52,894 bases of DNA from the IMG/VR virus record IMGVR_UViG_3300049780_000032, positions 1-52,894 of that record; one strand, given 5' to 3'. Positions 2,579 through 52,894 of this stretch are shown in pieces. Under the pieces are notes generated by a model, which saw nothing but the letters and a program-made list of their open reading frames with translations, did no database searches and was not told the DNA's origin. This stretch comes from a virus. Taxonomy: Duplodnaviria > Caudoviricetes. How positions within the stretch are numbered: position 1 is the stretch's first letter; the number at the start of each line of letters is the position of its first letter. The translations under genes and the position numbers were made by a program.

Positions 2579-2580
2579 GG

Positions 2581-2805: not shown

Positions 2806-2819
2806 CCGGTGGTCTCCTC

Positions 2820-5643: not shown

Positions 5644-5663
5644 CGAACCTCCCCGTCACGCGG

Positions 5664-11931: not shown

Positions 11932-13127
11932 TCCTCCCCTTGCGGGTCGTCGTCGCTGTCGCCGCCGGCCAGGCTCTGGCGGGGCTGGTTGGGCTTGTCA
12001 CCCCACGGGACCGGAGGCAGATCCTCCAGCTCGCGGACCTCGTTGACCGTCCCCCACTGCTTGTCCAGGCGAGACGCGTACGCCTGGTAGCGCTGGATCG
12101 TGTTCGTCTCCAGCAGCGCGTCCCGGTTGATGCGCACGTACTGCGGTTTCGGCAGGAAGCCGGACAGCAGCCGCTCCAGCCGGCGCAACCACTTGCCGAC
12201 GCTGTACTTCAGCAGCGACAGGTCGCGGTCGACCAGGTTGGAGTAGGTGAGCGACCCCTGGCTGGTGCCGTAGCCGAGCAGCTCGGCCACCCCCGGCCCG
12301 AAAATTCGGGCGCATTCCGCCGCTGAATACCCCTGCGTCTCCAAGAACTGGCTTTCCTCGGGGTTCACCTGGATGGACTGGTACTGCCAGCCGCGCCCGA
12401 GCACGACCGGCTCGCGGACGCCGCGCACAGCCGCCAGGAACCGGTCCTTAGCGGTGCGGGCCGTGGCCGGGGTGAGTTCGATCTCCGAGTTGGTCAGCAG
12501 CGCTGCCGGGTGGGCACCCTCGCTGAACCACTGCTGCCCGAACTTGCTGGTGGCCAAGTTGATGCCGATCGTGGTGGCCAGCATCTGGATCGGCGACAGG
12601 CCCAGCACCACGCCGGGGATGGCGTTCACCCGCCGGTGCAGGAAGTCGCGGGCCGGAATCTCCTGGCCGGACACCATCCACCGCACCGCGCCGTCCTCGA
12701 CGGAGCCGCTCACCTTGTCGGGGTGGAACAGGTCCGCCTGCTGCATGAAACCCTGCGGAGACCAGGACAAGACCCTGCCGTACACGTTGCCGCGCAGCAG
12801 CCAGCTCATGAGCACCCGGTAGCACCAGTCCTGAAGGCCGTGCCCGTCGCCGTCCGGGTCCTCCAGCCACCACGGCATCCGCGTCTCTTCCCGGTCGGCG
12901 CCGTCGCCCCGGAACACGTCCATCGGCAATTCGGAACCGAGTGAGGCGATCATGTCGGTGGCGGCGAACACGGAGACCGCCTGCAGAGCGCTCTCGGCGG
13001 TGGTCACCTGCACGTCGGCGTAGGAGCCGCCCGCCCGGATCCGGCGCAGCACCTCGTCGAGCGAGCCTTCGAAGAACGGCGTCAGCCGCTTCTCGGTGCG
13101 TTCGCGGCCGCCCCACCACACGCTCAC
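11928..13127 (-). CDS. Portal protein (HK97 family)
   Basis: 'LLRGNVY', 'GLSPI', 'SQFLET', 'TVNEVRELEDLPP'; GTG start overlaps upstream stop. Confidence 0.92.
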   Translation of the reverse strand: MSVWWGGRERTEKRLTPFFEGSLDEVLRRIRAGGSYADVQVTTAESALQAVSVFAATDMIASLGSELPMDVFRGDGADREETRMPWWLEDPDGDGHGLQDWCYRVLMSWLLRGNVYGRVLSWSPQGFMQQADLFHPDKVSGSVEDGAVRWMVSGQEIPARDFLHRRVNAIPGVVLGLSPIQMLATTIGINLATSKFGQQWFSEGAHPAALLTNSEIELTPATARTAKDRFLAAVRGVREPVVLGRGWQYQSIQVNPEESQFLETQGYSAAECARIFGPGVAELLGYGTSQGSLTYSNLVDRDLSLLKYSVGKWLRRLERLLSGFLPKPQYVRINRDALLETNTIQRYQAYASRLDKQWGTVNEVRELEDLPPVPWGDKPNQPRQSLAGGDSDDDPQGEE

Positions 13128-38901: not shown

Positions 38902-40467
38902 TCAGCTCCTCAGCGAGATGAGCTTCCCGGGTTCGACCTGGTCTTCCTTGCCGAACAGCAGAGCGGCGGTCTTCTCGGCCGCCGCTGTGGCCACCTGCGG
39001 GTAGACCGAGGTGTAGGTATCGGCGGTGAAGGCGCTGGAGGTGTGGCCCAGCGTTTCCTGCACCACCTTCATCTCCACCCCGGCCGCCAGCATCAGCGAG
39101 GCCGCGCCATGGCGGAGGTCATGGAGCCGGATGGGAGGCAGGCCGGCCAGGTAGGCGAGCCAGAGAAACTGGTCGGAGACGTGCTGCGGGTGCAGGCGGC
39201 TGCCGTCCGGTTGGGTGAAGACGAACTCGGTGTCGGTCCAGGCTTCCCCCATGGCCAGTCGCTCCTGAAGTTGCTGCTGGCGATGGGCGCGCAGCACCTG
39301 GGCAGTGTCGCTGTCCAGGGCGATGGTCCGCACCGAGGCGTCAGTCTTCGGTGTGCCTTCGTGGACTTCCCAGGCCAGCTGTACCAACTGCCAGTTGACG
39401 GTCAGGGTGTGGCCGTCGAGGTCGACTTCCTTCCAGCGCAGCCCGCAGGCCTCGCCCCGGCGCAGCCCGCGCAGCGCGATCAACTGATACAGGGCGAAGA
39501 GGCGATGCCGTCGTGCCTCTTCGAGGAACAGGCGGGTGTGCACGGGCGTCCACACCATCACCGGGGAGGGGCGTGGCACGCTGGTGTAGGCGTCGATCGG
39601 ATCGACCCGCCGTCCACCCCGGCGCTGCTTCTCGGCCTGCCGGTATTGACGGAAGGCCTCCTGCCAGGCGCAGACCCGGTCATTCGTCCACACCAGCGGC
39701 CTGGGCCGGGTCTTGGCCGGCATCTCCAGCACGGCGGCGGGGTTGAAGTCGATGAGCCGGTCCTGGCGCATGGCCATGTTCAAGGCATGTCGCAGGGTGG
39801 CGCGGATGCTGTGCATGGTGGTAACGCTGATCGGCCGCCGGTATTTGACGCTGGCCCGCACTTGCGGGTCGGGGTCGGTGCGGCGTTCGGCGATGGTGTC
39901 GTTGAACTCCTCGATCTGCTCGAACATCAACGCGATGTCGCTGACCTTGAGCTGATCCAACCTGAAGCGCCCCAGATACGGGGTCAGGTAGAGGCGGATG
40001 TGACCCTCGTAGGAGCGGCGGGTTGTTTCCTCGATCCTGCGCTTGCGGTTGAGGAACTCGGCCAGCCACTGTTCGACGGTGATCTCCTGGGTGAGGTGCT
40101 GCCCGGTCTTGATCTTGCGGCGGATGGTTTCCGCGTTGGGGAGGGTGTCGGTCTCATCCAGGGTGCGTTTGATCAGGTCGGCGATCTGGGTGCGGGTGGC
40201 GGGCTCGCGCGGGTCGGCCAGCGCGAGCAGGTCGCGCACGTGACCGAGTTCGTCTCTGGCGGCGTCCTGGGTGGCGAAGCCGCCGCGGCGCAGCGGTCCG
40301 CGCCGTTTGCCGTCGGGTTCGGGTGGGAGTTCGATCTGGTAGTTCCAGATGCCGTGCCGGTAGCTCCACCCGCCGTCGGCGCGGCGCAGCTTGGGGCACT
40401 TCTGGCCCAGTGCCTTGCCGTCGTCTCCTCGGCAGGAACAGCGTTTGAAGGTGCGTCCTTCGGCCAT
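38902..40467 (-). CDS. int: Second tyrosine integrase (actinomycete integrative-element type)
   Basis: MAEGRTFKRCSCR..CPKL N-terminus; GLRRGE, PKT, HDLRH, LGH, DTY. Confidence 0.95.
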   Translation of the reverse strand: MAEGRTFKRCSCRGDDGKALGQKCPKLRRADGGWSYRHGIWNYQIELPPEPDGKRRGPLRRGGFATQDAARDELGHVRDLLALADPREPATRTQIADLIKRTLDETDTLPNAETIRRKIKTGQHLTQEITVEQWLAEFLNRKRRIEETTRRSYEGHIRLYLTPYLGRFRLDQLKVSDIALMFEQIEEFNDTIAERRTDPDPQVRASVKYRRPISVTTMHSIRATLRHALNMAMRQDRLIDFNPAAVLEMPAKTRPRPLVWTNDRVCAWQEAFRQYRQAEKQRRGGRRVDPIDAYTSVPRPSPVMVWTPVHTRLFLEEARRHRLFALYQLIALRGLRRGEACGLRWKEVDLDGHTLTVNWQLVQLAWEVHEGTPKTDASVRTIALDSDTAQVLRAHRQQQLQERLAMGEAWTDTEFVFTQPDGSRLHPQHVSDQFLWLAYLAGLPPIRLHDLRHGAASLMLAAGVEMKVVQETLGHTSSAFTADTYTSVYPQVATAAAEKTAALLFGKEDQVEPGKLISLRS

Positions 40468-41420
40468 CGTGGTGCCTGTCCTGTTCTCTTCGGTGCTGAT
40501 GGGTGGGGCTGGTGTGGTGGAGATCGGGGTGGTGCTCGGCGCAGGGGTGCTGCGTCCGGTCCTGGAGTAGCCGGTGAAGGGCTGCCCTGCTCGAGGGGCG
40601 CGCTTTGAGAAGGTCCTGTTTCGAGTGCTCATCCCGCGATATCCCGTTCAGCCATGGCCCCGGTGATCGCTGGATACGGGTGCACGGCGGTCCTGCCGCG
40701 CGTGCCGCCGTTCTGTACGGTGTGGAGCGCCGGGCCGTCGTGTTCCCGTCCGGCGCGGCCGATGCGGTGGTGTGATCGGGCGAGCACGCCCGTGGTCGTC
40801 ACCCCGCCGCATCGATGGCCGTGCCGGACAGGGGGTATCGACGCCCACCTGGATGGCGATGGTCAAGGCCGAATCCGACGGTCAACGCCGGGCGGGTGCG
40901 ACAGCGGTCTCTGTACGGCGTCGCCGCCAGCTCAGCGCTCATCGCTTCGAGACGCCACAGAGCAAGGACGGCTCTCGCCGCGGGAACGCACCAAGGCGTG
41001 CGAGCGAGATGAGCAGCCATCCCAGGGCGTAGGCCTGGAATGACCGCGCAGTCGCTGCCGGCCCAAAGAGTCCCTTCGACCGGCAGATCTGAGCCGTCGG
41101 TGGTGCTGAACGGTATGGTCCGCGGTTCGCGTGGTACGGCGGATGATGTGATTCGCTGGTGTTGGTTGTCGTGCGGTGAAAGCCATGTCGGTGTGGCCCG
41201 ATCACCTGGGCCACCTGATCCCTGTCACCTTTATAAATACCTGCGATCAAACCCGGATTCGGACAGCAGGCGAGGCAAAGATTCGACCATGATCACCCGA
41301 CAAATCCTCCGCATCCGGGGCATACTCCCCGTCCTCGACCGGCGGTAGACAGCCTCAACCCGGCGAGGAAACAACCATGGCGGCCTGCAAGATGCGAGCA
41401 ACGATGCCCGGGAATTTAGC

Positions 41421-41851: not shown

Positions 41852-42667
41852 TCAGGGGCTGACTGCCGCGGAGTCGAGGCGTCGGTGCAGCATCGAAATC
41901 AGAGTCAGGACGTCGAGGGCATCCGACCGTGAGGTGGCCCAGAGAACTCTAGGTGCGTGCGCACTGGGGTTGCGGAAGGTGCTGAACAGGCCCTTCATCA
42001 GCATCACCAGACCGTTTTGCTCGGAGCGCTCCCATTCGGTGGTGAGGGTGTTGAAGGCGATACGGGGGCCCTGCCCGATAGAGCATGTCTTGTCGACCAG
42101 GCCGGAGCCATCACCGTGCTCCCCGGTCAGGGCCCGTAGCTTGTCAGCCACGCTCTTGGACGCCTCCAGCACCGCATGAAAGTAGTTGCGGTCCGTCAAC
42201 TCAGCCCGACAAAAGCGCAAGACATCAGGGTGCACATCACGCCGGCTGAGCTCCGCGCGCAGGTCGTCGGCTCGTTGCTGAGCCTCTGACACGGTAGTGG
42301 CCGCTGCGGTGCGTGCGATCTTGCCGTCCTCGCGTACCTTGTAACCGCTGTAGAGGAGGCTTTCATTCACCGCAGTACGCGTGCGCTCGTAGTCGGCTGT
42401 GGACTGGAAGCGGACCGGCCTCATGACCTCCCCTACCAGCCGAAGCATGGCGTGCCCATCCCCCTGATGGTTCTGTCGCTGAGCGACCGCGTCGAACAGG
42501 CGCTTCCATTTCGTTTGCCGCTCGCTGCCAGCGGGTTCGGTGACCTTGAGCGGGACGATCAGGTTAGGGATCTGCGGCCCTGTGACCGCATCGGCCAGCG
42601 CCTTGCAGATCTGCTCAACCGAGGCAGCGGGAAAGGGCGCGGGGAGAGGAGGCGCTGCTTGTGCCAT
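41852..42667 (-). CDS. TIGR02391 family protein
   Basis: 'TKWKRLF', 'VHPDVLRFCRAEL..NYFHAVLEA.KSVADKLR', 'FRNP.AH'. Confidence 0.85.
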   Translation of the reverse strand: MAQAAPPLPAPFPAASVEQICKALADAVTGPQIPNLIVPLKVTEPAGSERQTKWKRLFDAVAQRQNHQGDGHAMLRLVGEVMRPVRFQSTADYERTRTAVNESLLYSGYKVREDGKIARTAAATTVSEAQQRADDLRAELSRRDVHPDVLRFCRAELTDRNYFHAVLEASKSVADKLRALTGEHGDGSGLVDKTCSIGQGPRIAFNTLTTEWERSEQNGLVMLMKGLFSTFRNPSAHAPRVLWATSRSDALDVLTLISMLHRRLDSAAVSP

Positions 42668-42786
42668 AGCGTCTATGGTCTCGTGTTGCCGCCAAGGCCG
42701 CTACCAAATTACGGCCGTCGGCCGTCGGCCATCCCAGTCCCAAGCTGACTCTGCCCCAGCGGCTGAGCATGCTCATTGGGCCTCCT

Positions 42787-43824
42787 TTAATGGGGTTCCG
42801 GAGAGGAGATTTCAAGAATGTCATAAATGGGGTCTCCCCATGTAGCCCAATCACGCAGTCGTGGCGTATCAATGAGATGAATGTTCTGACTTCTGGCAAA
42901 CGCACGGGCTGGCTGGGAAAAGTCTCCACTTGCCATCATGACGACTATGTTCGCCTTGTGTATCGGGCGCGCAGTTCCGTTGAGTCGCTGAAGTGCTTCG
43001 GAACCGATCCGTCTACGGCCTCGAGTATGTTTGCACTGCATAACGAGCCGGCGGCCGTCTGGAGTCGTCGCAATCACGTCCGCGCCAAGGTCTCCAGACC
43101 CACCCGCACGGCGCACAATGGCCAACCCGTCGCGTCTCAAGAGCCAGGAACCAAGTATTTCAAAGTTCCGCGGATCGAAGTTATTGATCGTATCGAGGGT
43201 ATAGCTTTTTTCGCTTGAGGCGAATTCCTTGCGCCGGCAATCAAGTTTGTTTAGCGCGGCGATACACTCTTCGGCGTCGTGGCATATGCGCGTAATGCGT
43301 TCCCTGCGAGGCTCGATATCGACCCAATTTCCATGCTGTCTTCGTTTGGCGATACGCGCTCGTTTCCTGCGCTGTATAGAGAGGATGGCGAGTAGCCAAA
43401 CGTGCCCTTGAGGCGCTCGAAATTGCTTCTGGCTCTCTGAATGTGCAACGCAAGGTGCTGAGATTCCGTTTCGAGTAGCGCTCTTTTTCTTCGCAGGATT
43501 GCCTCATATTCGCCCCGCGTGAACTCATATTCTCCGGAGGGGATTTTATTTTATGCGCTCCCAGGTCGATCGAACTTCCGTGGATATCTCTTCACGGCAC
43601 TTTTCTGCTGTCGTTGCGATTGCTCTTGCGATAATTCCCTCGCGGGTCCAGAGAAGGGCTGCTAGAAAGTCGCTCTCGTCGGCCTTGCCGATATAGTCAC
43701 CCATGGCCTGGCGGAGTAGCTTGTCTGCAAATTTCGGAGGAGTAATTCGGGCTTCTCGGTCAATGATCACCGCGAAATGGTGCACCACTCCATAAAGATG
43801 GATGAAACGCCCAAACATGATCAT
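42787..43824 (-). pseudogene. Frameshifted Mrr-like restriction endonuclease
   Basis: C-terminal 'FE..GSWLLRRDG....GGSGDLGADVIA...VMQCK...FSQPA..FA..I.LID'; upstream AT-rich coding split over successive frames. Confidence 0.7.
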
Positions 43825-43858: not shown

Positions 43859-44190
43859 GTGCAGGAGACGGGCGAACTCCTGGCTGAGGTCGGCATTCCG
43901 ACCGTGCTCACCAGAATCCGGATGCCGCGCGTGAACTCGATCATGGAGCGGCGGGTGAGGTCCTGTCGCCGCGCACTCCTCGGTCACTGCCTGCTGTGGA
44001 ACGAATACCATCTGCGTCATGCCCTGCGTGAGTACGAATGGTTGTCACCTACAGCCAGCACCGTGCTCACTAGGCCCTGGACCAAATGGCCCCGCTACGC
44101 GTTATGCCGGATCCGATCACAGATCTAGAGCGGGTCATCGTCCTGCGCGTACGCTGAAGATACCGGCTCGGCGGAGTTCTCCGTGAGTGT
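43859..44190 (+). pseudogene. Integrase-core transposase remnant
   Basis: 'GI..V.T..RMPRVNSIMERRVRSCRR.LL...L.WNE.HLRHALREYE'; truncated and frameshifted. Confidence 0.75.
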
Positions 44191-44292
44191 TCACATACGG
44201 CTTGAGTTGTATGGATGTGGTTTGGCAGGCGTGGAGCCGATGGTGGGCATGGATAAGTATGGCCAGCATCCGGCGAGTCTGAGAGGTGCACA

Positions 44293-44895
44293 GTGGAGCT
44301 GCGAAAATTGCGCTTCTGGCCGGGCTCGCTCGTGGTGCTTGAGGGCTTGGACCGCAGTGGCAAGTCTACTCAGCGCCATTGGCTCTCAACTCTCGATTGG
44401 GCCGCCCCCGCTCCGTTGTTTACGCACATGCCATCCGGCTTGGCTCGTGTGACGGAAAGTATCTATACCCTTACTGAAGATGTCGATATCAAGTCGCCAT
44501 TAGCGCGCCAGCTGTTACATCTCGCGTGCCATGCAGAGAACATCGCCGCGATTGCTGAGGCCCGTCACGAGCGAGGCGTGGTGCTCGATCGGTGGTGGTG
44601 GTCCACTGTGGCCTACGGTTGGTACGGCTGCGACCTAGCCAACCTCGGCGTGGATGAGCGCGCGTTCTTTGGAATGATCAACTCAATCTGGGCGCGTCAG
44701 CCAGCGGACTTGGTTTTCCTGTTCACCTCGCCTTTTGAAGGGGATGAGCTAAACCGTGATCAGGTTCGCCGTGGCTACGAGGTTCTCGCGCGCCAGCACG
44801 CCTCCACGACGGTCGAAGTTCCCGCTGCCGATGAGGCGACGACTACGGCCTTCCTCGTTGAGCAGCTGGTCCTTCACAAGCTGGTCAAGATGTAG
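44293..44895 (+). CDS. Thymidylate kinase-like nucleotide kinase
   Basis: VVLEGLDRSGKST P-loop; VVLDRWWWSTVAYG; P.DLVFLF. Confidence 0.88.
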   Translation: MELRKLRFWPGSLVVLEGLDRSGKSTQRHWLSTLDWAAPAPLFTHMPSGLARVTESIYTLTEDVDIKSPLARQLLHLACHAENIAAIAEARHERGVVLDRWWWSTVAYGWYGCDLANLGVDERAFFGMINSIWARQPADLVFLFTSPFEGDELNRDQVRRGYEVLARQHASTTVEVPAADEATTTAFLVEQLVLHKLVKM

Positions 44896-45035
44896 CCGGC
44901 AAAGGCCTACCTTCCCATGGATGACAGGAGATCGCCGCGACGGTGCGTCCCGGAACTCCCTGGGTCGACGTGTGAGTGGCAAGGCACGCGTAGGACAGAA
45001 CCTGAGCCGTTGCTCTTCGCCGTGGTCTTCGTACC

Positions 45036-45914
45036 TCACTCGGTGGGCATGGGGGAAACGACGAGCGTCTGGGTGTTCATGTCAAGATCGATGATGCCGC
45101 CGCCAGCTTGGCGCAACTGCCGCCAGGCGGTGTAGCCGGTCAGGATGGCCTTTTCCCAGTCGGCGGCGCGGTGGACGGAGACCTCGAGGTGTCCCACCAT
45201 GGAGCCGATGGTGTCGAGTAGGTCATTGTCGATGTGGATCGTGCCGTCCAGGTAGTTGTGGCGGCTGGCGTAGGAGAACACCAAGGCGGAGATGCCTTCC
45301 TCGATGGCGATGGCCCGGCCGCCGTCTTCCGCTTCGTCGACGGTGGAGTTGGAACGGCGCTTGCGGCGTAGCAAGGAGCGCATCACCGGGGACCATCCAA
45401 GGACCGCTGCGTAGGACAGGTGGAAGATGTCGTGCATCCTGTAGTCGTCGCTGACGTGCGAGGCGTCGGTGAGCGGATCTCCCACGGCGGCACCGTCCCA
45501 GGTGAGGATCGATTTGATGATGCCGTTCACGTCGGCAAGGCGAAGGACGAAGCGGGCGGTGCGTGGAAGTCGTTCTTCCTGCGGATAGCCATCGTCGAAA
45601 GGAATCTGATCGGCGGTGGTGGGGCGCCAGCGATCAGCGATTTTGTGCAGGTTGGCTGCAGCGACATCGGCTAGATCGAGGCCGGCCTGCTCAGCGAGTA
45701 CGGCCAGGTACCACAGGGCGTCACCGAGTTCCTCGCGCAGCTGTGCCTTGAACGTCGGATTGGCCCGCCCATCACGCAACTGCTTCTTGTAGGCCGTGGC
45801 GACAGCCCCGACCTCGCCGATGAGCCCGAGGAGAGGAACAGCAACGGGGTCCGTGCCGGCTTCCGCCTCCTGAAGGGTCTTGCAGGCGGCTCGTTGGTAG
45901 TCGCTCAGGTCCAC
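45036..45914 (-). CDS. MazG-family nucleotide pyrophosphohydrolase with MazG C-terminal domain
   Basis: YQ, LGLIGEVG, EELGDALWYLA, ANLHK; C-terminal 'GDPLTD...DDYR.HD.FH...LGWSPV.R...EDGGRA..IEEG'. Confidence 0.9.
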   Translation of the reverse strand: MDLSDYQRAACKTLQEAEAGTDPVAVPLLGLIGEVGAVATAYKKQLRDGRANPTFKAQLREELGDALWYLAVLAEQAGLDLADVAAANLHKIADRWRPTTADQIPFDDGYPQEERLPRTARFVLRLADVNGIIKSILTWDGAAVGDPLTDASHVSDDYRMHDIFHLSYAAVLGWSPVMRSLLRRKRRSNSTVDEAEDGGRAIAIEEGISALVFSYASRHNYLDGTIHIDNDLLDTIGSMVGHLEVSVHRAADWEKAILTGYTAWRQLRQAGGGIIDLDMNTQTLVVSPMPTE

Positions 45915-45965
45915 ACTCACTCCTCGTGTCGGGTTCCCCAGCAGAACTTGTAGGATATCCAGGAG

Positions 45966-46004
45966 TGTGGCATTCTCGGACAGTAAATTCAGGAAAACGC
46001 CACA
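45966..46004. promoter_or_regulatory. Inverted repeat, candidate operator between divergent mazG and ACP-XRE operon
   Basis: TGTGGCATTCTC-N15-GAAAACGCCACA (10/12 match). Confidence 0.5.
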
Positions 46005-46018
46005 GCCGGGGAGGGCGG

Positions 46019-46309
46019 ATGTCCGCAAGCATGACCCGGGAGGACGTGGTGGGCCTCACCATCGGCCTACTGGCTGCGGAGCAAGGCCGGGACCCGGCCG
46101 AGTTGCGCGCAGAACTGGAGGGGCAGGGCTCCGACCTGCCTATCGACTCACAGCTGATCGCCGAGGTTCTGGCCCGAGTTGAGAATCACTTCGGGGTTCG
46201 CATCCCAGCCGACAACGAAGCCGCCCGCTCTTTGCGGTCGGTGCAGACGTTCGCCGAGACCATTCTCGTCGCAGCCGCCATGGCCGTCGCAAGTCAAGAG
46301 GTGTCATGA
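46019..46309 (+). CDS. Acyl carrier protein-like (phosphopantetheine site)
   Basis: 96 aa, acidic; 'LPIDSQLIAEVLARVENHFGVRIP...LRSVQTFAETI' ACP pattern. Confidence 0.8.
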   Translation: MSASMTREDVVGLTIGLLAAEQGRDPAELRAELEGQGSDLPIDSQLIAEVLARVENHFGVRIPADNEAARSLRSVQTFAETILVAAAMAVASQEVS

Positions 46310-46728
46310 CCACCCCAGAAGAACACATTGCCCGCGATCCTGACTGGAGCCCGAGTTGGGAGCTGATCGGAGAGAGACTGCGTACCGCCCGCGAATATTT
46401 GAACTTCTCTCAGCAGCATGTCGCGGACAGGACCGGAATCCCGCGGACGGCCATCAGCGACATCGAGCGTGGGGCACGTAAGGTCGACAGCCTGGAGTTG
46501 CGCAAGCTGGCGCGGTTCTACAAGCGCCCCATCGGCTACTTCCTTGATGAGGACACCGAGGCCGCCATCGCTGATCACGCAACGGCCATGCTCGCTCGGG
46601 CGCTGAGTCCTCTTAGCGACGGCGACCGGGAGCAGGTGGTCAAGTTCGCGCAGTTCTTGCAGTCCGCATACGCCGCAGAGGCCGAGGAGGAGAAGCAGCA
46701 GCGGGTGTCCGGGGAGAGAGATCGGTGA
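46306..46728 (+). CDS. XRE-family transcriptional regulator
   Basis: 'IGERLRTARE..NFSQQHVA..TGIPRTAISDIERG.RKV..LEL..LA'. Confidence 0.93.
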   Translation: MTTPEEHIARDPDWSPSWELIGERLRTAREYLNFSQQHVADRTGIPRTAISDIERGARKVDSLELRKLARFYKRPIGYFLDEDTEAAIADHATAMLARALSPLSDGDREQVVKFAQFLQSAYAAEAEEEKQQRVSGERDR

Positions 46729-47672
46729 CCTGGGGGCTGGCGCACGGGCGCGCGATGATCCGGGCCGCTCAGGCCCACCGCGACCTGGATCTAGATCAGA
46801 GCCGCTACATCGACGTATACGAGGCCTTGCACCGTGCGGAGCTGATGGTGGTATGCGCCCCGATGTCGGCCCTGTTCGGTGCTTACCTGCCGGCCGCCGT
46901 AGGCCCGGGAGGCAGGAAGGCGGGCGTGCTGCTGAACAGCCATCGAAGCGTTATTGATCAGCGCCACAGCGCTGCTCACGAACTTGGCCACCATGTGTTC
47001 GGTCACGGCGAGTGTGTATCTGAGGGCTCGCAAGTGTTCGAGGACAGCGATCCGGGAGCGTGGCCGGTGAGGGAGAAGGAGGCGGAAGCTTTCGCCTCCT
47101 GGTTCTTGATGCCACGCGTAGCGACCCGCAAGGTGATCGCCGCACTGGGCGTCGAGGTCATTACCCGGCCCGAGGAGGTGTATCAAGTTGCGCTGCACCT
47201 GGGTACTTCCTATCGAGGCACGCTGCGCCATCTCGTCAGCCTGAAGCTCATCTCCTCGGCCGACGCGAGCCGTTGGGCTCGTTTGCCCAGAGGGAAGGTC
47301 CGAGCACGAGCCGTCGGTCGGGCTGCCTCCTCGCCCGTCAACGACATCTGGATTCTAGGCCCGGCCGCACACGGCGCTACGTTGCACGTACGCCCCGGCG
47401 ACCGACTGGTGGTCGGCTTGTCATCAGCCACGGATTCTGCTGCGGAGCCGCTCACCCCGCCAGCGGGGGTACAACGTGCTATCTCCCCGAGCGGGGACGA
47501 AGCAGGCATGCTGGGATTTGAGCTAGATCTCGATGATCCCCTGGAGTTCGACATCACCGACCAGTTCTCTGCTGGAGGTCCGTTGCGGCTTACGGCGCCC
47601 GAAAGGGGCGGATGGGAGGTGAAGGTGGCTTCCGTCCGGGTTCCTCGGGTTGGCTTCAACGAGCCGGACTGA
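46725..47672 (+). CDS. ImmA/IrrE-family zinc metallopeptidase
   Basis: R.S.AHELGH, E.EA..FA..FLMP, HTH-like LGTSY; extra C-terminal beta domain. Confidence 0.9.
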   Translation: MTWGLAHGRAMIRAAQAHRDLDLDQSRYIDVYEALHRAELMVVCAPMSALFGAYLPAAVGPGGRKAGVLLNSHRSVIDQRHSAAHELGHHVFGHGECVSEGSQVFEDSDPGAWPVREKEAEAFASWFLMPRVATRKVIAALGVEVITRPEEVYQVALHLGTSYRGTLRHLVSLKLISSADASRWARLPRGKVRARAVGRAASSPVNDIWILGPAAHGATLHVRPGDRLVVGLSSATDSAAEPLTPPAGVQRAISPSGDEAGMLGFELDLDDPLEFDITDQFSAGGPLRLTAPERGGWEVKVASVRVPRVGFNEPD

Positions 47673-47873
47673 TGTGGATGGGAAGGGTCGGTTACTGATC
47701 TAGCGAGATCGGTCAGCTCGTTAACGGTGATTCGCCCGTGTCGGACGGGCGACCGGACTGAACGTCCCGGGACGTGTGCCCGGCCTACACGCCTGCGCTC
47801 GCAGGGTTCGTGGCTAGATTCCAGCCCAAGCTGCGACAACATGATCCGTCTACCGCGAGAAACGGACATCGCG

Positions 47874-48737
47874 ATGTCAGTCCTGTACATCCAAGCGCCG
47901 AACGTCTCCGAAGCATGGCTGCAGGCCGTGCGTGCGCTGGGAGAGCGGCCAGATCCTCGCGCTCTACACATGATCGTGTCAATTGACGCCCCGGTCGCTG
48001 AGGACAGCCGCATTCGAGCTGCCGTCGACAGGCTCCTCGACGATCTCGGGCAGCCGGGTGTCGACACCGTGGCCAACACGATCTTCCCCGCGGCCCTTGC
48101 AGCCACCAGCTCAAATCACGAGGAGCTGGTCGAACGCTACCTGCGTTACCTCCCGCGGCTACGCGGATTCAAGGGCAACCAGTTCGGTACCTATTTCGCC
48201 AGGCTGGTCGCATATCCCGGGATCAAGGGAGCAGTTGACCAGCTAGCCGCCGTGGTGGATCGGCTTCAAAAGGGCGGTCGCGCACGCTTCACCCGCTACG
48301 AAGCGCTCATCGACCAACCCGAAGTAGACGGTGAACCTGATACGGAGGCGGCGGCTTCGCAGGAGCCGAACGAGTCGGTCAACGGCGACTCGCCTCCGCC
48401 CGATGGCGGGGCAACTGCTCCGATCTACGTGCCGGGCAAGGACCGAACACCTGGCCACTTCCCCTGCCTGAGTCACTGCTCATTCCAACTGGATGCCGAC
48501 GCCCGCGTGCATCTACTGGCCTACTACCGTAGCCAGTCGATGGTGGAGAGGGCCTACGGAAATTACCTGGGACTGGGCCGGCTACTGCAGTACGTAGCCA
48601 GTCAGGCAGGACTGCGAACGGGGCAGCTCACTGTCGTGGCCGGACAGGCGCAGATCGAGATGGCGCGCCGCCAAGTGCGCTTGCTGACATCGCAGCCCGA
48701 GATCCTCCCGGGCTTCGCTGTATCCAAGTCTGCCTGA
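47874..48737 (+). CDS. Thymidylate synthase-like protein (candidate dUMP hydroxymethylase)
   Basis: TVANTIFP, DQL, FPCLSHCSFQ (catalytic Cys), YYRSQ, AYGNY. Confidence 0.8.
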   Translation: MSVLYIQAPNVSEAWLQAVRALGERPDPRALHMIVSIDAPVAEDSRIRAAVDRLLDDLGQPGVDTVANTIFPAALAATSSNHEELVERYLRYLPRLRGFKGNQFGTYFARLVAYPGIKGAVDQLAAVVDRLQKGGRARFTRYEALIDQPEVDGEPDTEAAASQEPNESVNGDSPPPDGGATAPIYVPGKDRTPGHFPCLSHCSFQLDADARVHLLAYYRSQSMVERAYGNYLGLGRLLQYVASQAGLRTGQLTVVAGQAQIEMARRQVRLLTSQPEILPGFAVSKSA

Positions 48738-48804
48738 AGACGGACATGTCTGAGACGTTCCTGGCAGACCTCTGAAGCTAAAGTCATCTCATCCGCTCAA
48801 AGCA

Positions 48805-49830
48805 CTACGCAGGGGGCAACTCGTCGCTATTGATCTTCCACTTCGGCGGAAACCATGCCGTCAAGGGAGCAGAGTCTGCCCGGTAACCCTGCTTGATCCG
48901 GGTACGACCGCTGACACCCTGCACGTGGGGATGAGCCACCCGTGAGTATTTGTCGACCTCGCAGAAGAGGTTCTGACAGTCGATCAACTGCAAACGCCTA
49001 CCGGACAAGCCAGAGAACTCCAGGCCGAGACGCTCGAACTGGACCTCCTGCGTGTCAGCCATGTAGCGGATCACCTCCGCCTCAACCCCCTGAGCGTCAG
49101 GGCCGAAGCATTTGCGGATGCCATCACGAGCTCCAGGACCCGCCACGACGAAGTCCATCTCGCTGAAACTCAGCGCCGACGTGTAGTTCAGGTCGATCAG
49201 GAACTGGAACGCAAGGAAGTCCCCCAACCCGGGATATCCCTTCAAGACCTCGAAAGCCTCTGCCATGGTGGTCGCAGAAGCGATCTTGGCTGGCGCATCG
49301 GCAGTCATCATCAATTCCAACAACCGTAGGTGGTTACGGTGCTTGCGCTGCTCACCAAGCGGCGGCTGCGGGATCACGTAGGCGGGGGAGTACAGACGCT
49401 GTCCTTCAGCGAAAGCACCGCTCAGCACGGCTTCGTAGGCCTGCCACGAGTAGTTCACCCAACTGATCTCGCCGAGCATGGCTGACAGCAGATGCCAGGT
49501 GGAGATTCGGTTGAACAGCTTAAACAACATGACCCGGAAGAACACCTCAGACCACTCGGACGACCCCCGGTAGATGACCTGGGTGATGAGGTGCTGGCTC
49601 ACACGGTCACTAGCCCGGTAGCAGTTGGTGAAGCGGTACCGCGCCAGGATCGGGTCGGCCGTCCATGGACCGACCTGCCCGGCGAGCTTCCTCTCGTACA
49701 CCCGCTGCCGCTCTGCGGCGAAACGCCAATAGGTGTCGAACACCGTCGTGGGGCTCAGCCGCCGGCCCGCGATGACCACCTCTGACGTCCGGTCGAGGTC
49801 AGCCCTCTGTCCGATCGTTGTCGTCGTCAC
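48805..49830 (-). CDS. 5-hmdU DNA kinase-like protein (aGPT-Pplase clade 1)
   Basis: 'YWRFAAERQ....GPWT.DPIL..YRFTN.YR..DRVSQ', 'FKLFN', 'G.G.FLA.Q..IDL.Y', 'GPGARDG', 'QNLFCE.DKY'. Confidence 0.88.
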   Translation of the reverse strand: MTTTTIGQRADLDRTSEVVIAGRRLSPTTVFDTYWRFAAERQRVYERKLAGQVGPWTADPILARYRFTNCYRASDRVSQHLITQVIYRGSSEWSEVFFRVMLFKLFNRISTWHLLSAMLGEISWVNYSWQAYEAVLSGAFAEGQRLYSPAYVIPQPPLGEQRKHRNHLRLLELMMTADAPAKIASATTMAEAFEVLKGYPGLGDFLAFQFLIDLNYTSALSFSEMDFVVAGPGARDGIRKCFGPDAQGVEAEVIRYMADTQEVQFERLGLEFSGLSGRRLQLIDCQNLFCEVDKYSRVAHPHVQGVSGRTRIKQGYRADSAPLTAWFPPKWKINSDELPPA

Positions 49831-49860
49831 TCTAGAATTATATATCTATTGCATATCTGT
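49831..49860 (-). promoter_or_regulatory. AT-rich divergent promoter; leaderless for the DNA kinase gene
   Basis: Perfect TATAAT (49842-49837) 6 nt before GTG start. Confidence 0.6.
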
Positions 49861-49885
49861 CGCCTGCGAATGCGAGAGAAGAGGC

Positions 49886-50176
49886 ATGGAGCTCCTCCGG
49901 GACTCGCCCAAACGCACCACGTCAGTGCAGTGGCCGGACGCTGTTGACGCCCGGCTTGAGATACTGGCGGCCCTGGCAACTGCGGCAGGAGAGCAGGTCT
50001 CAAGGGCGCAATTGCTGGCAGCCCTGGTCGCCATGGCACCGCTGGACAAGGAAGCACTGAGCGTGGCCGTGCATTCCTACAGGCAGCAGTTGCACGAGGA
50101 GTTCGCCACTGCCACTGCTCAAGTTGAAGATCTTCCCCGTGTAAGACGTTCTGGGCGAAAGCGCCGTAACACTTGA
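49886..50176 (+). CDS. Small putative ribbon-helix-helix DNA-binding protein
   Basis: GAGG RBS; 'RTTSVQWPDAVDARLE.L.......SRAQLLAALV' strand-helix-helix. Confidence 0.6.
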   Translation: MELLRDSPKRTTSVQWPDAVDARLEILAALATAAGEQVSRAQLLAALVAMAPLDKEALSVAVHSYRQQLHEEFATATAQVEDLPRVRRSGRKRRNT

Positions 50177-50305
50177 GCTTGGCGGCTGCGGAGCAAACGA
50201 GCGGGCCGCTGATCTGCGGGCGGAACCTAGGAACGCACCAATCCGGCATGCAAGTCATCGGTGATCGAGGCGCCCTAGATCTTTCCGGACAGCTCCCAGC
50301 TAGGG

Positions 50306-50570: not shown

Positions 50571-52511
50571 TCAGACAGTCAGAAGGCGGAAGATTTCTTC
50601 GAAGCGCTCAAGCGTGGCATCGTCCACCTGCGCGAAGAACGCCCCAAGGTCGGAGGTGAGTTGGTGCGCGGGGCCAGCGTGATCGAACTCTCCCCGAACG
50701 AGGGCAATGCGGCGCAGGATTGGTTCGTTGGTCTGAGGAAGTTCCGCTTCCGTCACGGCGGGGAGACCAGACTGGTTGTAGAGCCACAAATAGTCCTTGG
50801 CCGTGAACAAGTCCTCGATATCGCCGCTGGCGGGTAGACCGTCGAGCTCGCCGATAACCACGATCTTGCTCTGGTCGACGCCTGCTGCCGTGGCGGCCAT
50901 CCGAACCTTCCTGATGACCTTGGTGGCCTCGGCGCCATCTACCAAGGCGCGTACGTCGAGGCGGCGTCCCATCAGGGCCACAAAGGCGGGCATGTTGCCT
51001 ACGCCACCGACCGGGATGATGGACAGGCGAGGATTAAGCCCTGTCCGATTCTGGGCCACCAGATGGGCCGACAAGCGCATCAGGAACACGAAGTCGCTGC
51101 TGCCTTCCACCGCGAGGTGTGGGCCTACGCCCAGGAAGAGGTGCTGGGATACGGAGTAGCCCAGGGCTGCCTCGACGGGCAGAATCGTATTGCGGTCGGC
51201 CGACAGATCGACAGGAGTGATGACCACGCCGAGGTCGGGATTCTCCCGAGTGGCCTGGTCGTGGACGGCGCGCATCGTCTCGTAGCGGCTGGGATCGAGC
51301 ATGTGCTGCGAGTGTGTGGTGTAGAGGACTTGCTGGTGCACTCCCAACTCGTCGATGATGTAGGTAAGGAAGTCACGCTGCGCTTCCCCGTGCAAGCTGG
51401 TCCCCGGCTCGTCTAGGAGGACCACCACCCGATCAGAGGAATCCTGGTATCTGCTGAACGCGGCTAGGAAGGAGAAGAACCACTGGAACCCTGACGAGCG
51501 TGTGGAGAAGTTGGTGTCCACCTCGTGCCGCGCGTCATGAAGCTCGATCTTGAGTATCCTGTGGCGAATCTCGTGACCTTCAGCCGTATGGTCGACAACC
51601 GGCATATCGGTATCAAACCGCACCGACAGGGCGGGATTCTGCTGCCAGTACTTCATCACCTGGGCGGTGAGGTCGGAGCTGGCTGCCTGCAGCTCGGCCT
51701 TCCGGGTGATGTACTCCTCGTCCAAGAAGCTCCCCGGAACCTGTCCCGCCAGGCTGAGCAGGGCCAGCATGGTCTCGTCACCTTTGATCAACGACTTCGA
51801 TTTGGCGCGGTGCGCCAGTTCGGTCAGATCGCACTCGCCCTTGAGTAGCTCGTAGTTGGAGAAGTAGAAGAAGCGAGGGAGCAGCGTGTGCAGCTGTTCC
51901 TGCTGGTCACCGGTGGTTCGCTCGCCCAAGAGCACGGCATACTTCTTCAACATGTTGGGGATCTTCTTGATCGCCGTCGCACGCGCGGTGTGCCCGTCCT
52001 CGCTCAACTGCATGGCCAACTCGCGCGCGGTGCTGGCCAGGGCGGCCGAATTCTCGATCTGTATCAGGGATGCGAGATCGTCTGGATCTGCGCCAACCTC
52101 GTTGCCCAGGGTGCGAACGAGATCGGAAAGCTCACATTCAACTTCGATCACGAGTTCGTTGTCGTAGCTCCGCCATGCCACAACGATCATCCCCGCCGGT
52201 GGTTCAAAGCCCAAGATGCCGGCCACATCGCTGACATCTTGGACCTCCAGAGCGAACCTGCCGACGATGGGTGCGACGGCACCTAGGTCCTCTTTGCGGC
52301 GATCCCTGGCCAGATGTCGACGGGGATACTCCACCGATACGTCGAATTTGTCTGGCCGGTTGGCGGGATTGAGACGATGCAACGCCTGCAAGATCGTCGT
52401 TTTGCCCGACTCGTTCTTGCCGATGAGACTAGTCACCGCCTGGTCGACCACCATGGTCTGGGCGTCGGTGAAGTTACGGAATCGCTGGATCTCGATCGAG
52501 AGGAGGAGCAT
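50571..52511 (-). CDS. OLD-like ATP-dependent nuclease (ABC ATPase + TOPRIM)
   Basis: GKNESGKTT, SSGFQWF signature, LLDEPG, TTHS, VEGSSD, LVDG, DIEDLF. Confidence 0.88.
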   Translation of the reverse strand: MLLLSIEIQRFRNFTDAQTMVVDQAVTSLIGKNESGKTTILQALHRLNPANRPDKFDVSVEYPRRHLARDRRKEDLGAVAPIVGRFALEVQDVSDVAGILGFEPPAGMIVVAWRSYDNELVIEVECELSDLVRTLGNEVGADPDDLASLIQIENSAALASTARELAMQLSEDGHTARATAIKKIPNMLKKYAVLLGERTTGDQQEQLHTLLPRFFYFSNYELLKGECDLTELAHRAKSKSLIKGDETMLALLSLAGQVPGSFLDEEYITRKAELQAASSDLTAQVMKYWQQNPALSVRFDTDMPVVDHTAEGHEIRHRILKIELHDARHEVDTNFSTRSSGFQWFFSFLAAFSRYQDSSDRVVVLLDEPGTSLHGEAQRDFLTYIIDELGVHQQVLYTTHSQHMLDPSRYETMRAVHDQATRENPDLGVVITPVDLSADRNTILPVEAALGYSVSQHLFLGVGPHLAVEGSSDFVFLMRLSAHLVAQNRTGLNPRLSIIPVGGVGNMPAFVALMGRRLDVRALVDGAEATKVIRKVRMAATAAGVDQSKIVVIGELDGLPASGDIEDLFTAKDYLWLYNQSGLPAVTEAELPQTNEPILRRIALVRGEFDHAGPAHQLTSDLGAFFAQVDDATLERFEEIFRLLTV

Positions 52512-52607: not shown

Positions 52608-52894
52608 TGTGTCAGAGAAAATGCACCAGATAGGGCCGAAAACACCTATCTGCCGCGAGAGGGGTTATACGGGATCTTGGCGTAGTTCGCGCCGGGTCGC
52701 AACCCTGGCCTCGTGAGCGGCCTTCAGCCCGGCCCGGCGGGCCTCCCGGATCGCCTCACCGCGCCCATGGTGCTCGTCGTCGGGGGTGACGTAGCCGAGG
52801 CCCTCGTGCAGCCTGACCTCGTTGTAGAACGTCCGGATCGAGTCCAGCTCGGCCTCCAGCTCCCCAGGCTCGGTGATCTTGTCCAGGTGCGGGA
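52608..52894 (-). mobile_element. IS (IS481/IS3-like) 3' end
   Basis: Transposase C-terminus 'FYNEVRLHEGLGYVTP' ending TAA at 52665-52667; candidate terminal TGTGTCAGAG at 52608. Confidence 0.75.

Follow-up and report, generated by a model that had tools for sequence, protein, structure and literature searches.

The window analyzed here is the whole stretch of DNA, 52,894 nucleotides long. Between positions 44293 and 50176, we found eight open frames with family support, in agreement with an earlier note that had described eight intact genes there. This span is a near-exact match to a discrete 5.9-kb module, 44275-50182, which aligned with the nearest relative as a single blastn block of 90.1% identity, and outside of which blastn found nothing in common with that relative. 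The ends of the shared block coincide with the borders of the module, and we counted this as evidence of mobility. In the list below, four probable true starts lie later than those of the longest frames (MazG, 45914; ACP, 46019; TS, 47874; small frame, 49886), and alignment A2, together with a GAGGAG ribosome-binding site, fixed that of MazG.

44293-44895, plus strand: TMK-like dNMP kinase, an accessory part (200 aa; PF02223)
45036-45914, minus strand: MazG, a DCTPP1-like all-alpha NTP pyrophosphatase, with fused MazG_C (PF18722, PF03819; longest frame to 46028)
45915-46018: divergent spacer separating MazG from the ACP-XRE-ImmA operon (104 bp, read from the sequence)
46019-46309, plus strand: ACP-like carrier protein (96 aa; longest frame from 45926; PF00550)
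46306-46728, plus strand: XRE-family repressor, CapH-like (140 aa; HTH_3, PADLOC capH)
46725-47672, plus strand: ImmA/IrrE metallopeptidase, CapP-like (315 aa; Peptidase_M78, PADLOC capP)
47673-47873: spacer separating ImmA from the TS-like gene (201 bp, contains an 8-bp stem)
47874-48737, plus strand: predicted divergent thymidylate-synthase-superfamily enzyme (287 aa; longest frame from 47727)
48805-49830, minus strand: HMUDK_hel-only protein with a predicted HhH-glycosylase fold, M6 gp55 / aGPT-Pplase homologue (341 aa; PF18723)
49831-49885: divergent spacer, rich in A+T, separating the gp55-like gene from that of the small regulator (55 bp, from the sequence)
49886-50176, plus strand: small conserved protein, probable DNA-binding regulator (96 aa; longest frame from 49733)

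Because the MazG and HMUDK_hel genes lie on the minus strand, the module is not one operon. The G+C content is reduced in this region, at 0.56-0.65 versus about 0.70. A prophage occupies bases 1-38525, encoding tail tube, capsid, portal, terminase, DnaB, beta clamp and integrase, and it ends about 6 kb upstream of the module, so the former statement that no phage genes are adjacent has to be dropped. The record is classified as viral. A defence-island setting, as previously described, was recovered: a PD-Lambda-3_B-like protein (240.8 bits), an Mrr_cat protein and an AAA_15 ATPase that matched AriA/Old/GajA are encoded nearby. As for the IS scars thought to bracket the module, the right-hand one was found (rve_3, 25.4 bits, 52665-52892), whereas the left-hand candidate at 43859-44128 matched no Pfam family.

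Enzymes and carrier protein

The gp55-like gene is the most conserved of the set, with a median identity of 66% over 79 loci. Its product matched PF18723 (HMUDK_hel) with 386.9 bits at residues 28-304 of 341, and is a full-length homologue of gp55 of phage M6 (25% identity, E 1e-20). An AlphaFold2 model had a pLDDT of 94.2, and in VIA comparisons with this model ranks 1-23 were all taken by the HhH-glycosylase superfamily, including the queuine salvage enzyme 7ugk (Z 10.7), PaMx11 gp46 (8z2m, Z 9.5) and 20 HhH glycosylases (Z 5.2-8.7). The label '5-hmdU DNA kinase' given in the earlier note was rejected, since only the helical domain is present, without a P-loop or kinase domain. Judging from the model, the protein is an HhH-glycosylase-fold member of the M6 gp55 / aGPT-Pplase family, and not a kinase.

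The TS-like protein scored below the cut-offs of both TIGR03283 (55.7 bits; cut-off 174.55) and PF00303 (17.5 bits; cut-off 24.3). A profile of 25 TS-like homologues retrieved thymidylate synthases from the PDB (best E 0.0028), and in the alignment the catalytic Cys is matched by PC, QRS by YRS and FN by GN, the 11-residue spacing being identical. The FPCL and AYGNY motifs singled out before are well conserved, as P197, C198, G229 and N230 are invariant in 25/25 aligned homologues. Around the catalytic Cys, the protein also shows 33% identity with M6 gp58 over 64 aa. By its sequence, we regard it as a divergent thymidylate-synthase-superfamily enzyme in which the nucleophilic Cys is kept.

The MazG protein matched PF18722 (MazG_C, 252.4 bits) and PF03819 (32.9 bits). 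Its best PDB sequence match was dCTP pyrophosphatase 1, Foldseek returned DCTPP1/RS21-C6 at 25-28% identity, and VIA gave a Z of 9.2 to 1vmg. It shares the fold of DCTPP1/RS21-C6 and other all-alpha MazG pyrophosphatases, with which it is about 25-28% identical across some 100 residues, but it is fused to a 190-residue MazG_C domain, to which structure comparison assigned no fold. Given that the second Glu of the ExxE motif is replaced by Ala or Ser in 21/22 homologues, activity is not assured; E72, E99, E100 and D103 are invariant.

The TMK-like kinase passed the PF02223 cut-off in its N-terminal half only (30.7 bits; cut-off 27) and fell short of that of TIGR00041 (41.1 bits; cut-off 83). 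It resembles the N-terminal domain of the kinase+HMUDK_hel fusion protein P0122 (31% identity over 189 aa, E 2e-12), and no similarity to M6 gp54 was found. The ACP-like protein reached 20.1 bits with PF00550, slightly below the cut-off of 20.8; its orthologue in S. cathayae, annotated as an acyl carrier protein, reached 32.3 bits. The P[IV]DS motif keeps its Ser in 16/16 homologues, and a phosphopantetheinyl transferase gene adjoins the cassette of Rhizobium.

Regulators and spacers

The small frame at 49886-50176 always runs divergent to the gp55-like gene. Its product is probably a DNA-binding regulator: it scored 25.7 bits with Trans_reg_C (cut-off 26.2), and it has a W-P..VD.RL / SRAQLLAAL pattern that may represent a ribbon-helix-helix. 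A scan of the 55-bp spacer in front of it found no operator repeat. The 104-bp spacer at 45915-46018 is likely the promoter and operator region, where only the gene layout points to the operator; the scan found there neither an inverted repeat nor a shared operator word. The 201 bp that separate ImmA from the TS-like gene suggest that the latter is under its own control, and they include a perfect stem of 8 bp, TCGCCCGT/ACGGGCGA, at 47732-47752.

The start of the XRE gene overlaps the stop of the ACP gene. Its product matched HTH_3 (43.4 bits) and the PADLOC capH model (5.5e-15, positions 7-99 of a 103-position profile). ImmA matched Peptidase_M78 (38.5 bits), with a HELGH motif that is invariant in 17/17 homologues, and the capP model (5.5e-12); its best PDB sequence match was CapP 7t5t (E 0.013). 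PADLOC, one of the programs proposed in the earlier note, has no family for the TS-like, gp55-like, MazG or ACP proteins. An HTH repressor gene followed by an overlapping M78 metallopeptidase gene is also the arrangement of the CapH/CapP switch of CBASS and other immune operons. In that family, a peptidase stimulated by single-stranded DNA is reported to cleave the repressor, and the protease-repressor switch envisaged earlier for this locus thus fits. The differences are that the ImmA protein shows no conserved cysteine switch (Cys97 is found in only 4/17 homologues), that its C-terminal half is unmatched by capP and that the ACP-like gene heads the regulator operon. Moreover, the CapH/CapP paper describes regulators on the strand opposite to all regulated genes, a layout that is only partly kept in the window, and in Rhizobium and Nostoc all genes of the cassette point the same way. 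XRE/ImmA-type pairs are reported to govern DNA-damage regulons and mobile elements as well; therefore, their presence is no proof of defence.

Conservation, mobility and related systems

We surveyed 80 related actinobacterial loci, 67 of which have room for the whole cassette, from Streptomyces, Nonomuraea, Micromonospora, Amycolatopsis, Nocardia and others. The TS-like gene, among the most constant parts, was found in 75 of the 80, XRE and ImmA in 71 each, MazG+MazG_C in 70, the small frame in 66, the ACP-like gene in 65 and the TMK-like kinase in only 7. The five core genes (gp55-like, TS-like, ImmA, XRE and MazG+MazG_C) occurred together in 70/80 loci, and all seven, with the ACP-like carrier and the small regulator, in 60/80; for the 67 loci with full room, the numbers were 60 and 50. 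No gene outside the cassette was conserved among these loci. We also found gene fusions of the TMK-like kinase with HMUDK_hel (P0122, P0124), of HMUDK_hel with MazG_C (P0123) and of HMUDK_hel with MazG and MazG_C (P0126, P0151). Co-occurrence, the block shared with the nearest relative and these fusions support the earlier view that the genes form one conserved functional unit.

Conjugative plasmids of Rhizobium and Nostoc carry the same gene set, running wholly in a single direction, and in Rhizobium an SMC-like ATPase and a SIR2 protein are encoded downstream as defence-type neighbours. PF18723 was present in 5/401 genomes sampled across the phylum (one of the five, G150, is an unpublished genome) and on 22 plasmid records, of which 6 are conjugative, 3 mobilizable and 13 non-mobilizable; most cassette copies are chromosomal. 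The 82 flanking genes included integrases (4), TniQ (3) and transposases, as well as ResIII (4) and restriction or Mokosh-type matches, all being raw counts with no background control. Several phyla have this mobile cassette, and the segment 44275-50182 is its actinobacterial version.

The parallel drawn earlier with phage thymidine hypermodification holds. In such clusters (M6 gp51-gp58; PaMx11, ViI, SP10 and PhiW-14), a TS-superfamily enzyme is likewise found with a nucleotide kinase and an HhH-fold protein of the gp55 type: in M6, gp55 adjoins the true kinase gp54 and lies near the TS homologue gp58, and SP10 gp186 is a kinase fused to a gp55-type domain, like the bacterial protein P0122. 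However, the TMK-like kinase of the window is unlike gp54, none of the eight proteins matched an aGPT-Pplase2, PLP or radical-SAM family in the Pfam scans, and the cassette adds MazG_C, the ACP-like carrier and the XRE/ImmA regulators. Among 79 viral loci with a homologue, XRE and ImmA were found in 2 each, TS in 3 and MazG in none; the cassette sits in cellular DNA.

Another comparison is offered by E. coli units with TS and 5-hmdU-kinase (5hmdUk) domains, validated with DefensePredictor (Science 2026, PMC13092281), which are reported to cut phage plating, with no mechanism given. The earlier claim that related systems lack functional characterization is thus superseded. The text of that paper names Pfam-type domains that also occur in the cassette, namely TS, dNMP kinase and 5hmdUk, but an NMAD domain is named as well, and neither an ACP nor an XRE/ImmA pair is described in it. 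It also lists MazG, MazG-C and aGPT-Pplase as predicted defence domains, MazG and MazG-C being unvalidated there.

Possible functions of the cassette

With moderate confidence, we propose that the cassette is an inducible anti-phage system under CapH/CapP-like regulation, which acts via deoxyuridine/thymidine nucleotides. In its favor are the linkage, fusions and mobility of the genes, the CapH/CapP-like regulators, the invariant Cys and Asn of the TS-like enzyme, the DCTPP1-like MazG, the fold of the gp55-like protein with its phage parallel, the defence genes nearby and the precedent of the E. coli units. The substrates, step order and defence phenotype that we infer are as follows. Single-stranded DNA or DNA damage would activate the peptidase, which would cleave the repressor. 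MazG would convert pyrimidine dNTPs to dNMPs, also draining the pool, the TS-like enzyme would modify C5 of dUMP, and the TMK-like or a host kinase would rephosphorylate the modified product. Finally, the gp55-like protein would act on the modified base, in DNA or nucleotide, and replicating phage DNA would be spoiled; in the chemistry proposed earlier, 5-hmdU would be produced, incorporated and phosphorylated. Several points speak against this proposal. The kinase step is missing from 73/80 loci, and the carrier protein, whatever part it may play, has no place in the proposed nucleotide chemistry. The Rhizobium TS-like orthologue has Ala in place of the Arg that aligns with R166 of thymidylate synthase, and ImmA lacks a conserved cysteine switch, its capP match being confined to the peptidase half. 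The lack of PADLOC models for four of the proteins, the strand layout of the regulators and the replaced Glu of MazG homologues count on this side, too.

It is unlikely, in our estimate, that the genes are a module for DNA-damage-induced nucleotide-pool cleaning and repair under an IrrE/DdrO-like switch, in which 5-hmdUTP and other oxidised pyrimidine dNTPs would be destroyed by MazG, the HhH-fold protein would remove the oxidised base from nucleotides or DNA, and the TS-like enzyme and TMK-like kinase would refill the thymidylate pool. A damage-response pair of Deinococcus is reported to belong to the regulator family, and the structure that best matched the gp55-like protein is that of the queuine salvage enzyme, a nucleotide glycosidase. 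DCTPP1, which MazG resembles, has been crystallised with 5-methyl-dCTP/dCMP, all partner enzymes work on free nucleotides, and human DNPH1 has been described as a pool sanitiser that hydrolyses hmdUMP. However, the distribution is patchy and mobile, with few positive genomes, copies on plasmids and borders equal to the shared block, and therefore an accessory conflict system fits better than housekeeping repair. Furthermore, the neighbours are defence and mobile-element genes, related domains have been validated in phage defence (PMC13092281), and the carrier protein would be left unexplained.

We consider it rather improbable that a mobile element protects itself with the cassette, by hypermodifying thymidine in the DNA of its carrier plasmid or island on host entry or after damage and so evading restriction, as phage pathways do. 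The enzyme set either derives from the hypermodification genes of phages or runs parallel to them, the homologue H42 is annotated as a 'putative DNA base hypermodification protein', and from the CapH/CapP literature a single-stranded-DNA-sensitive switch would be expected to fire on the entry of those plasmids that are conjugative. Yet most of the plasmid records are non-mobilizable and most copies chromosomal, we detected neither a true 5-hmdU DNA kinase nor a clade-2 transferase in the cassette, gp55 is dispensable in the reconstituted M6 reaction, and a repressed, inducible module would be an odd means of keeping DNA modified. Very doubtful is a system against phages already using 5-hmdU or hypermodified thymidine, with MazG destroying the modified dNTP and the gp55-like protein excising or blocking the modified base in phage DNA. 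The gp55-like protein does share its fold with base-flipping enzymes handling modified T (8z2m), MazG is DCTPP1-like and there are actinophage relatives with TS + glycosyltransferase clusters, such as Brevibacterium phage LuckyBarnes, but this would give no role to the C5-modifying TS-like enzyme of 75/80 loci, nor explain the kinase and carrier.

Thus, we favor the inducible anti-phage system, in which damage-sensing regulators are paired with enzymes that probably alter thymidine-type building blocks of DNA, most likely against phages.

The eight-gene module and its setting

Comparison of the window with its nearest relative gave a single common block, at 44275-50182 (90.1% identity), and this block is the module. 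Its gene map was drawn from family scans and homologue alignments and checked against the sequence.

Genes of the module
44293-44895, plus strand, TMK-like kinase
45036-45914, minus strand, MazG+MazG_C protein
46019-46309, plus strand, ACP-like carrier
46306-46728, plus strand, XRE repressor
46725-47672, plus strand, ImmA/IrrE peptidase
47874-48737, plus strand, TS-like enzyme
48805-49830, minus strand, HMUDK_hel-only (gp55-like) protein
49886-50176, plus strand, 96-aa conserved protein (small gene)

The ACP, XRE and ImmA genes form an operon in which successive stop and start codons overlap, and from which the MazG gene diverges. The TS-like gene lies downstream of this operon after a 201-bp spacer and is convergent with the gp55-like gene, which in turn is divergent from the small gene. 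The module thus comprises at least four transcription units: the TMK-like gene; MazG, opposite the divergent ACP-XRE-ImmA operon; the TS-like gene; and the gp55-like gene, opposite the divergent small gene. The three promoter-side spacers contained no convincing inverted repeats or shared words, the sole repeat seen being one 8-bp stem in the ImmA-TS spacer, and there were no terminal repeats of note at the module borders. No RNA run is listed as containing the stretch; two soil-metagenome DNA runs contain it and are its possible source.

The record is classed as viral (a contig of 52,894 bases, completeness estimated at 60), and a prophage occupies its bases 1-38525, so that the earlier note was mistaken in stating that no phage genes are adjacent.

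Other features of the window
1-38525, prophage structural genes: tail tube, capsid, prohead protease, portal, terminase
1-38525, other prophage genes: DnaB, DnaC-like loader, HNH, two DNA methylases, beta clamp, WhiB, YqaJ exonuclease, repressor
37047-38525, plus strand, prophage integrase
38902-40632, minus strand, second integrase
41852-43140 region, PD-Lambda-3_B-like / TIGR02391 protein (240.8 bits; PADLOC 3.8e-72)
50571-52511, AAA_15/AAA_21 ATPase, 646 aa (PADLOC AriA 2e-21, Old 3.3e-14, GajA)
right end of the window, running off the contig, transposase fragment (rve_3)

Within the prophage, the replication module encodes a DnaB of its own together with a DnaC/IstB-like loader and a complete 388-aa beta sliding clamp, and it further contains an N6/N4 methylase of 872 aa, a C5 methylase of 567 aa, DUF1643, HNH and a WhiB-domain protein. 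Amid its structural genes, 6365-7836 holds two frames, one for a 350-aa NAD-dependent epimerase/dehydratase and one with a weak likeness to methyltransferases, which may represent sugar-modification or glycosylation cargo.

From about 41 kb, the G+C content drops from approximately 0.70 to 0.56-0.65. The right-hand island contains the PD-Lambda-3_B-like protein, an Mrr_cat fragment, the module, the AAA_15 ATPase and the rve_3 fragment. Defense-type genes thus lie on either side of the module in this low-G+C island, and its description as a defense island holds. The claim that IS scars bracket the module stands only for the right side, where the rve_3 fragment lies; the left scar, which we take to resemble a transposase C-terminus, had no match in the Pfam family scan. 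The two integrases are both of the tyrosine type and convergent, which suggests that the prophage and the low-G+C island are two integrative elements stacked at one site. A check for attachment sites found no tRNA genes in the window, and hence none near an integrase. The Mrr_cat nuclease frame (117 aa), which adjoins the PD-Lambda-3_B-like protein, covers positions 17-114 of the 115-position profile and is possibly truncated. The 646-aa ATPase is, judging from its matches, a probable OLD-family or Gabija/PARIS-type defense ATPase, and no partner gene is obvious within the window.

Conservation and spread of the cassette

Species-representative genomes gave 399 candidate stretches, of which 366 held up, and the analysis used the best 80 loci. 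These are a sample of close relatives, because all of them are actinobacterial and their gp55-like proteins are 61-92% identical to the query. The presence of each gene was scored by tblastn at a query coverage of at least 40%.

Presence of the other module genes at the 80 loci
TS-like, 75/80
XRE, 71/80
ImmA, 71/80
MazG, 70/80
small gene, 66/80
ACP-like, 65/80
TMK-like, 7/80

The core five genes (gp55-like, TS-like, ImmA, XRE and MazG+MazG_C) occur together at 70 of the 80 actinobacterial loci, which bears out the neighborhood conservation that the earlier note had proposed as a check, and all seven non-kinase genes, that is, the core plus the ACP-like and small genes, at 60. Where the locus had room for the whole cassette (67 loci), all seven were present in 50 and the core five in 60; the core set was incomplete despite the room at L019, L024, L042, L043, L057, L068 and L074. 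The main form has an invariant gene order, and a second arrangement without the ACP or small gene was seen at six loci (L054, L073 and L075-L078). Clustering of all flanking frames revealed no conserved genes outside the cassette. At one locus with a TMK-like gene (L060, Nonomuraea salmonea, 12526-13122), this gene was matched as three mutually offset pieces and is probably disrupted.

Across 401 genomes sampled evenly from the phylum, PF18723, the family of the gp55-like protein, was found in five, a count that includes the centre genome and the unpublished genome G150; it was found in none of the 14 control genomes. The gp55-like gene was also found on 22 plasmid records, the hosts being Streptomyces, Mycobacterium, Rhodococcus, Rhizobium/Sinorhizobium, Nostoc and other cyanobacteria, Parabacteroides and haloarchaea. 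One conjugative Rhizobium plasmid carries the genes on a single strand in the order TMK-like, small protein, HTH, ImmA, TS, gp55-like and MazG+MazG_C, and its TS-like protein is a full-length relative (E 3e-18). A gene for a 4'-phosphopantetheinyl transferase (ACPS) adjoins this cassette on the opposite strand, and the cassette is followed by genes for an SMC-like ATPase and a SIR2 protein. A conjugative Nostoc plasmid has the Rhizobium gene order minus the kinase. Directly beside the cassette of Rhizobium rosettiformans plasmid p3 (L085, 6497-11243) are an 805-aa SMC_N/AAA_23 ATPase, a SIR2 family protein and a 205-aa protein with no family match, and these genes look like a separate defense system.

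A descriptive survey, without a background set, of the 82 genes that most closely flank the other loci found integrases (4), TniQ (3), transposases, Replic_Relax (2), ResIII (4) and helicase-associated domains (7), together with single matches to restriction, Mokosh MkoB, PbeA and STAND. Among 79 loci on viral contigs with a gp55-like gene, TS was found at three, TMK, XRE and ImmA at two each and MazG at none, counts in which tblastn could have missed divergent partners. Among phages, the gp55-like protein has its closest homologue (36% identity) in Brevibacterium phage LuckyBarnes (L083, region 1840-5855), where the gene comes after those for a thymidylate synthase homologue of 517 aa and two glycosyltransferases, beside the DNA polymerase; this region may encode an undescribed glycosylated-thymidine pathway in an actinophage.

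Predicted properties of the module proteins

The protein encoded at 48805-49830 had been called a 5-hmdU DNA kinase, an enzyme defined in the literature as a P-loop kinase, such as gp54 of Pseudomonas phage M6. We reject this identity. Only the helical domain PF18723 (HMUDK_hel) was matched, over residues 28-304 of 341; the Pfam scan shows no P-loop kinase domain, and the model (pLDDT 94.2) is an all-helical, two-bundle fold resembling that of HhH glycosylases. The protein proves instead to be homologous, along its full length, to M6 gp55 (25% identity, E 1e-20), the gene for which adjoins gp54. In phage SP10, gp186 carries the gp55 domain fused behind a kinase, which accounts for the Pfam name, and the family is widely annotated as 'nucleotide kinase' though it lacks the kinase domain.

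A wide structure search (VIA) returned only members of the HhH glycosylase superfamily at ranks 1-23, with matches to the queuine salvage enzyme (Z 10.7 and 10.6), to PaMx11 gp46 (8z2m; Z 9.5, rmsd 4.0 over 217 residues), which is a 5-PmdU glycinyltransferase, and to 20 DNA glycosylases (Z 5.2-8.7), Z values of a kind that helical proteins can reach by chance. Foldseek agreed weakly (best E 0.05). The uniformity of the match list and the sequence link to gp55 argue that the HhH kinship is nonetheless real. M6 gp55 itself is one of two aG/PT-PPlase paralogues (Table 3, PMC5889632). By predicted fold and phage homology, the gp55-like protein is thus a putative member of the aGPT-Pplase / amino-acid:DNA transferase superfamily, whose hallmark reaction is to transfer a nucleophile onto 5-phosphomethyl-dU in DNA. 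Since gp55 is dispensable for the reconstituted M6 reaction, its clade has no known activity. The family is large, with at least 8000 matches in the sequence search and 4479 cluster representatives at E values up to 0.001. Two of its members are unusual fusions, one of NADAR, HMUDK_hel and an N6_N4 DNA methylase (P0175, 1007 aa) and one of HMUDK_hel with a chromo domain (P0260, 747 aa), which hint at DNA- or chromatin-directed roles elsewhere.

The TS-like protein scored 17.5 bits against PF00303 (threshold 24.3) and 55.7 against the archaeal TS model TIGR03283 (174.55), and is a divergent relative rather than a canonical ThyA. A profile of 25 homologues retrieved thymidylate synthases from the PDB (best E 0.0028). 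In the alignment, P-C falls on the catalytic Cys, Y-R-S on Q-R-S and G-N on F-N, and the spacing of R219 and N230 (11 residues) is the same as that of QRS...FN in thymidylate synthases; the N-terminal half aligns poorly to the solved enzymes. P197 and C198, aligned with the PC motif, are invariant in 25/25 homologues, as are R219 and N230 in 25/25 actinobacterial homologues; the Arg is Ala in the Rhizobium orthologue. The retention of the Cys of FPCL and the Asn of AYGNY, noticed earlier, is thereby upheld. We take the thymidylate synthase equivalents of the Arg and Asn to be R166 and N177; in this superfamily, the Asn selects uracil and the Arg binds phosphate.

The MazG domain matched PF03819 (32.9 bits, cut-off 22), and its structure matched 1vmg (VIA Z 9.2) and DCTPP1 (Foldseek probability 1.00); sequence and structure searches both placed DCTPP1/RS21-C6 closest. 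The MazG metal site is defined by four acidic residues, ExxE ... ExxD. Here, E72, E99, E100 and D103 are invariant, and of 22 homologues 21 carry Ala or Ser in place of the second Glu of the first motif. In the homologue alignment, MazG_C shows strongly conserved motifs, and in the ESM Atlas it found only MazG_C clusters; the full-length model (pLDDT 70.4) was matched through the MazG domain in both structure searches, which thus gave MazG_C no fold assignment and no sign that its fold is new.

The TMK-like protein matches Thymidylate_kin and, in part only, the PADLOC candidate PDC-M51B (6.3e-9). It aligns with the kinase domain of a kinase+HMUDK_hel fusion (31% identity over 189 aa, E 2e-12) and is the split form of the kinase domain that is fused to HMUDK_hel in other bacteria. 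Pairwise BLASTP detected no similarity to M6 gp54 (best E 0.46). The ACP-like protein scored 20.1 bits against a cut-off of 20.8 and its S. cathayae orthologue 32.3 bits, and the predicted phosphopantetheine-attachment Ser is invariant (16/16). The carrier is secure in actinobacteria only, because the small proteins at its position in Rhizobium and Nostoc have no Pfam family and no significant similarity to the ACP-like protein of the window.

The XRE and ImmA proteins matched the PADLOC models capH (5.5e-15) and capP (5.5e-12), respectively, CapP was the best PDB sequence match of the latter, and its HELGH motif is invariant (17/17). The two are therefore predicted to be a CapH/CapP-type pair of HTH repressor and HExxH M78 peptidase. 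The CapH/CapP literature describes an autoregulatory cysteine-switch loop in the peptidase, and has the regulators lie upstream of the operon that they control and in the opposite orientation. However, the window peptidase lacks a conserved cysteine switch, the only nearby Cys (Cys97) occurring in four of 17 orthologues, and its C-terminal half is unmatched by the capP model. The orientation rule is also only partly kept, since MazG is divergent from the regulators whereas the TS-like gene is co-directional, and in the Rhizobium and Nostoc cassettes every gene runs in one direction. The 96-aa protein scored 25.7 bits against Trans_reg_C (cut-off 26.2) and is probably a second DNA-binding regulator. 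A complex prediction for this protein with the gp55-like protein scored 0.00, which makes no call either way.

Precedents and meaning of the cassette

The cassette is real, well delimited and widespread, yet it has precedent. It did not prove to be a named system in PADLOC-DB 2.0 (2023 library), which was suggested as a check: among the effector genes, the MazG, ACP, TS-like and HMUDK_hel products each hit zero families, and the TMK-like protein hit part of a candidate model only. The first predictions of such bacterial neighborhoods are probably those of Iyer et al. (2013) and of Burroughs et al. (2015), both in NAR. The DefensePredictor work (Science 2026, PMC13092281) was the only study bearing on this cassette that we found in the literature. 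According to that paper, phage protection is conferred by E. coli transcription units with "5-hydroxymethyluracil kinase" and "thymidylate synthase" domains, and MazG, MazG-C and aGPT-Pplase are predicted, unvalidated defense domains; it gives no mechanism.

Phage pathways of thymidine hypermodification are well described, and their enzymes are known as weapons against host restriction. Like them, the cassette has a TS homologue, a gp55-type HhH protein and a nucleotide kinase; unlike the phage toolkit, it adds MazG_C, a carrier protein and a predicted damage-sensing switch. We considered whether the gene set is a defense that hypermodifies the DNA of the invader and not its own, which we think quite unlikely. 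In such a defense, the TS-like enzyme would make a 5-substituted dUMP for incorporation by the replicating phage, and MazG+MazG_C would protect or feed the nucleotide pool. The gp55-like HhH protein is a paralogue of the amino-acid:DNA transferases, and its part would be to link the modified thymine with the dedicated carrier, through the phosphopantetheine arm or a cargo; and the bulky adduct or DNA-protein crosslink would stop phage replication and packaging.

The cassette spreads on plasmids and islands across actinobacteria, alphaproteobacteria and cyanobacteria; plasmids of Bacteroidota and haloarchaea encode the gp55-like protein itself as well. Solving it would give a function both to the gp55 / HMUDK_hel family and to MazG_C, and new DNA-writing enzymes are possible. 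It would also reveal whether bacteria turn modified nucleotides or DNA adducts on phages.
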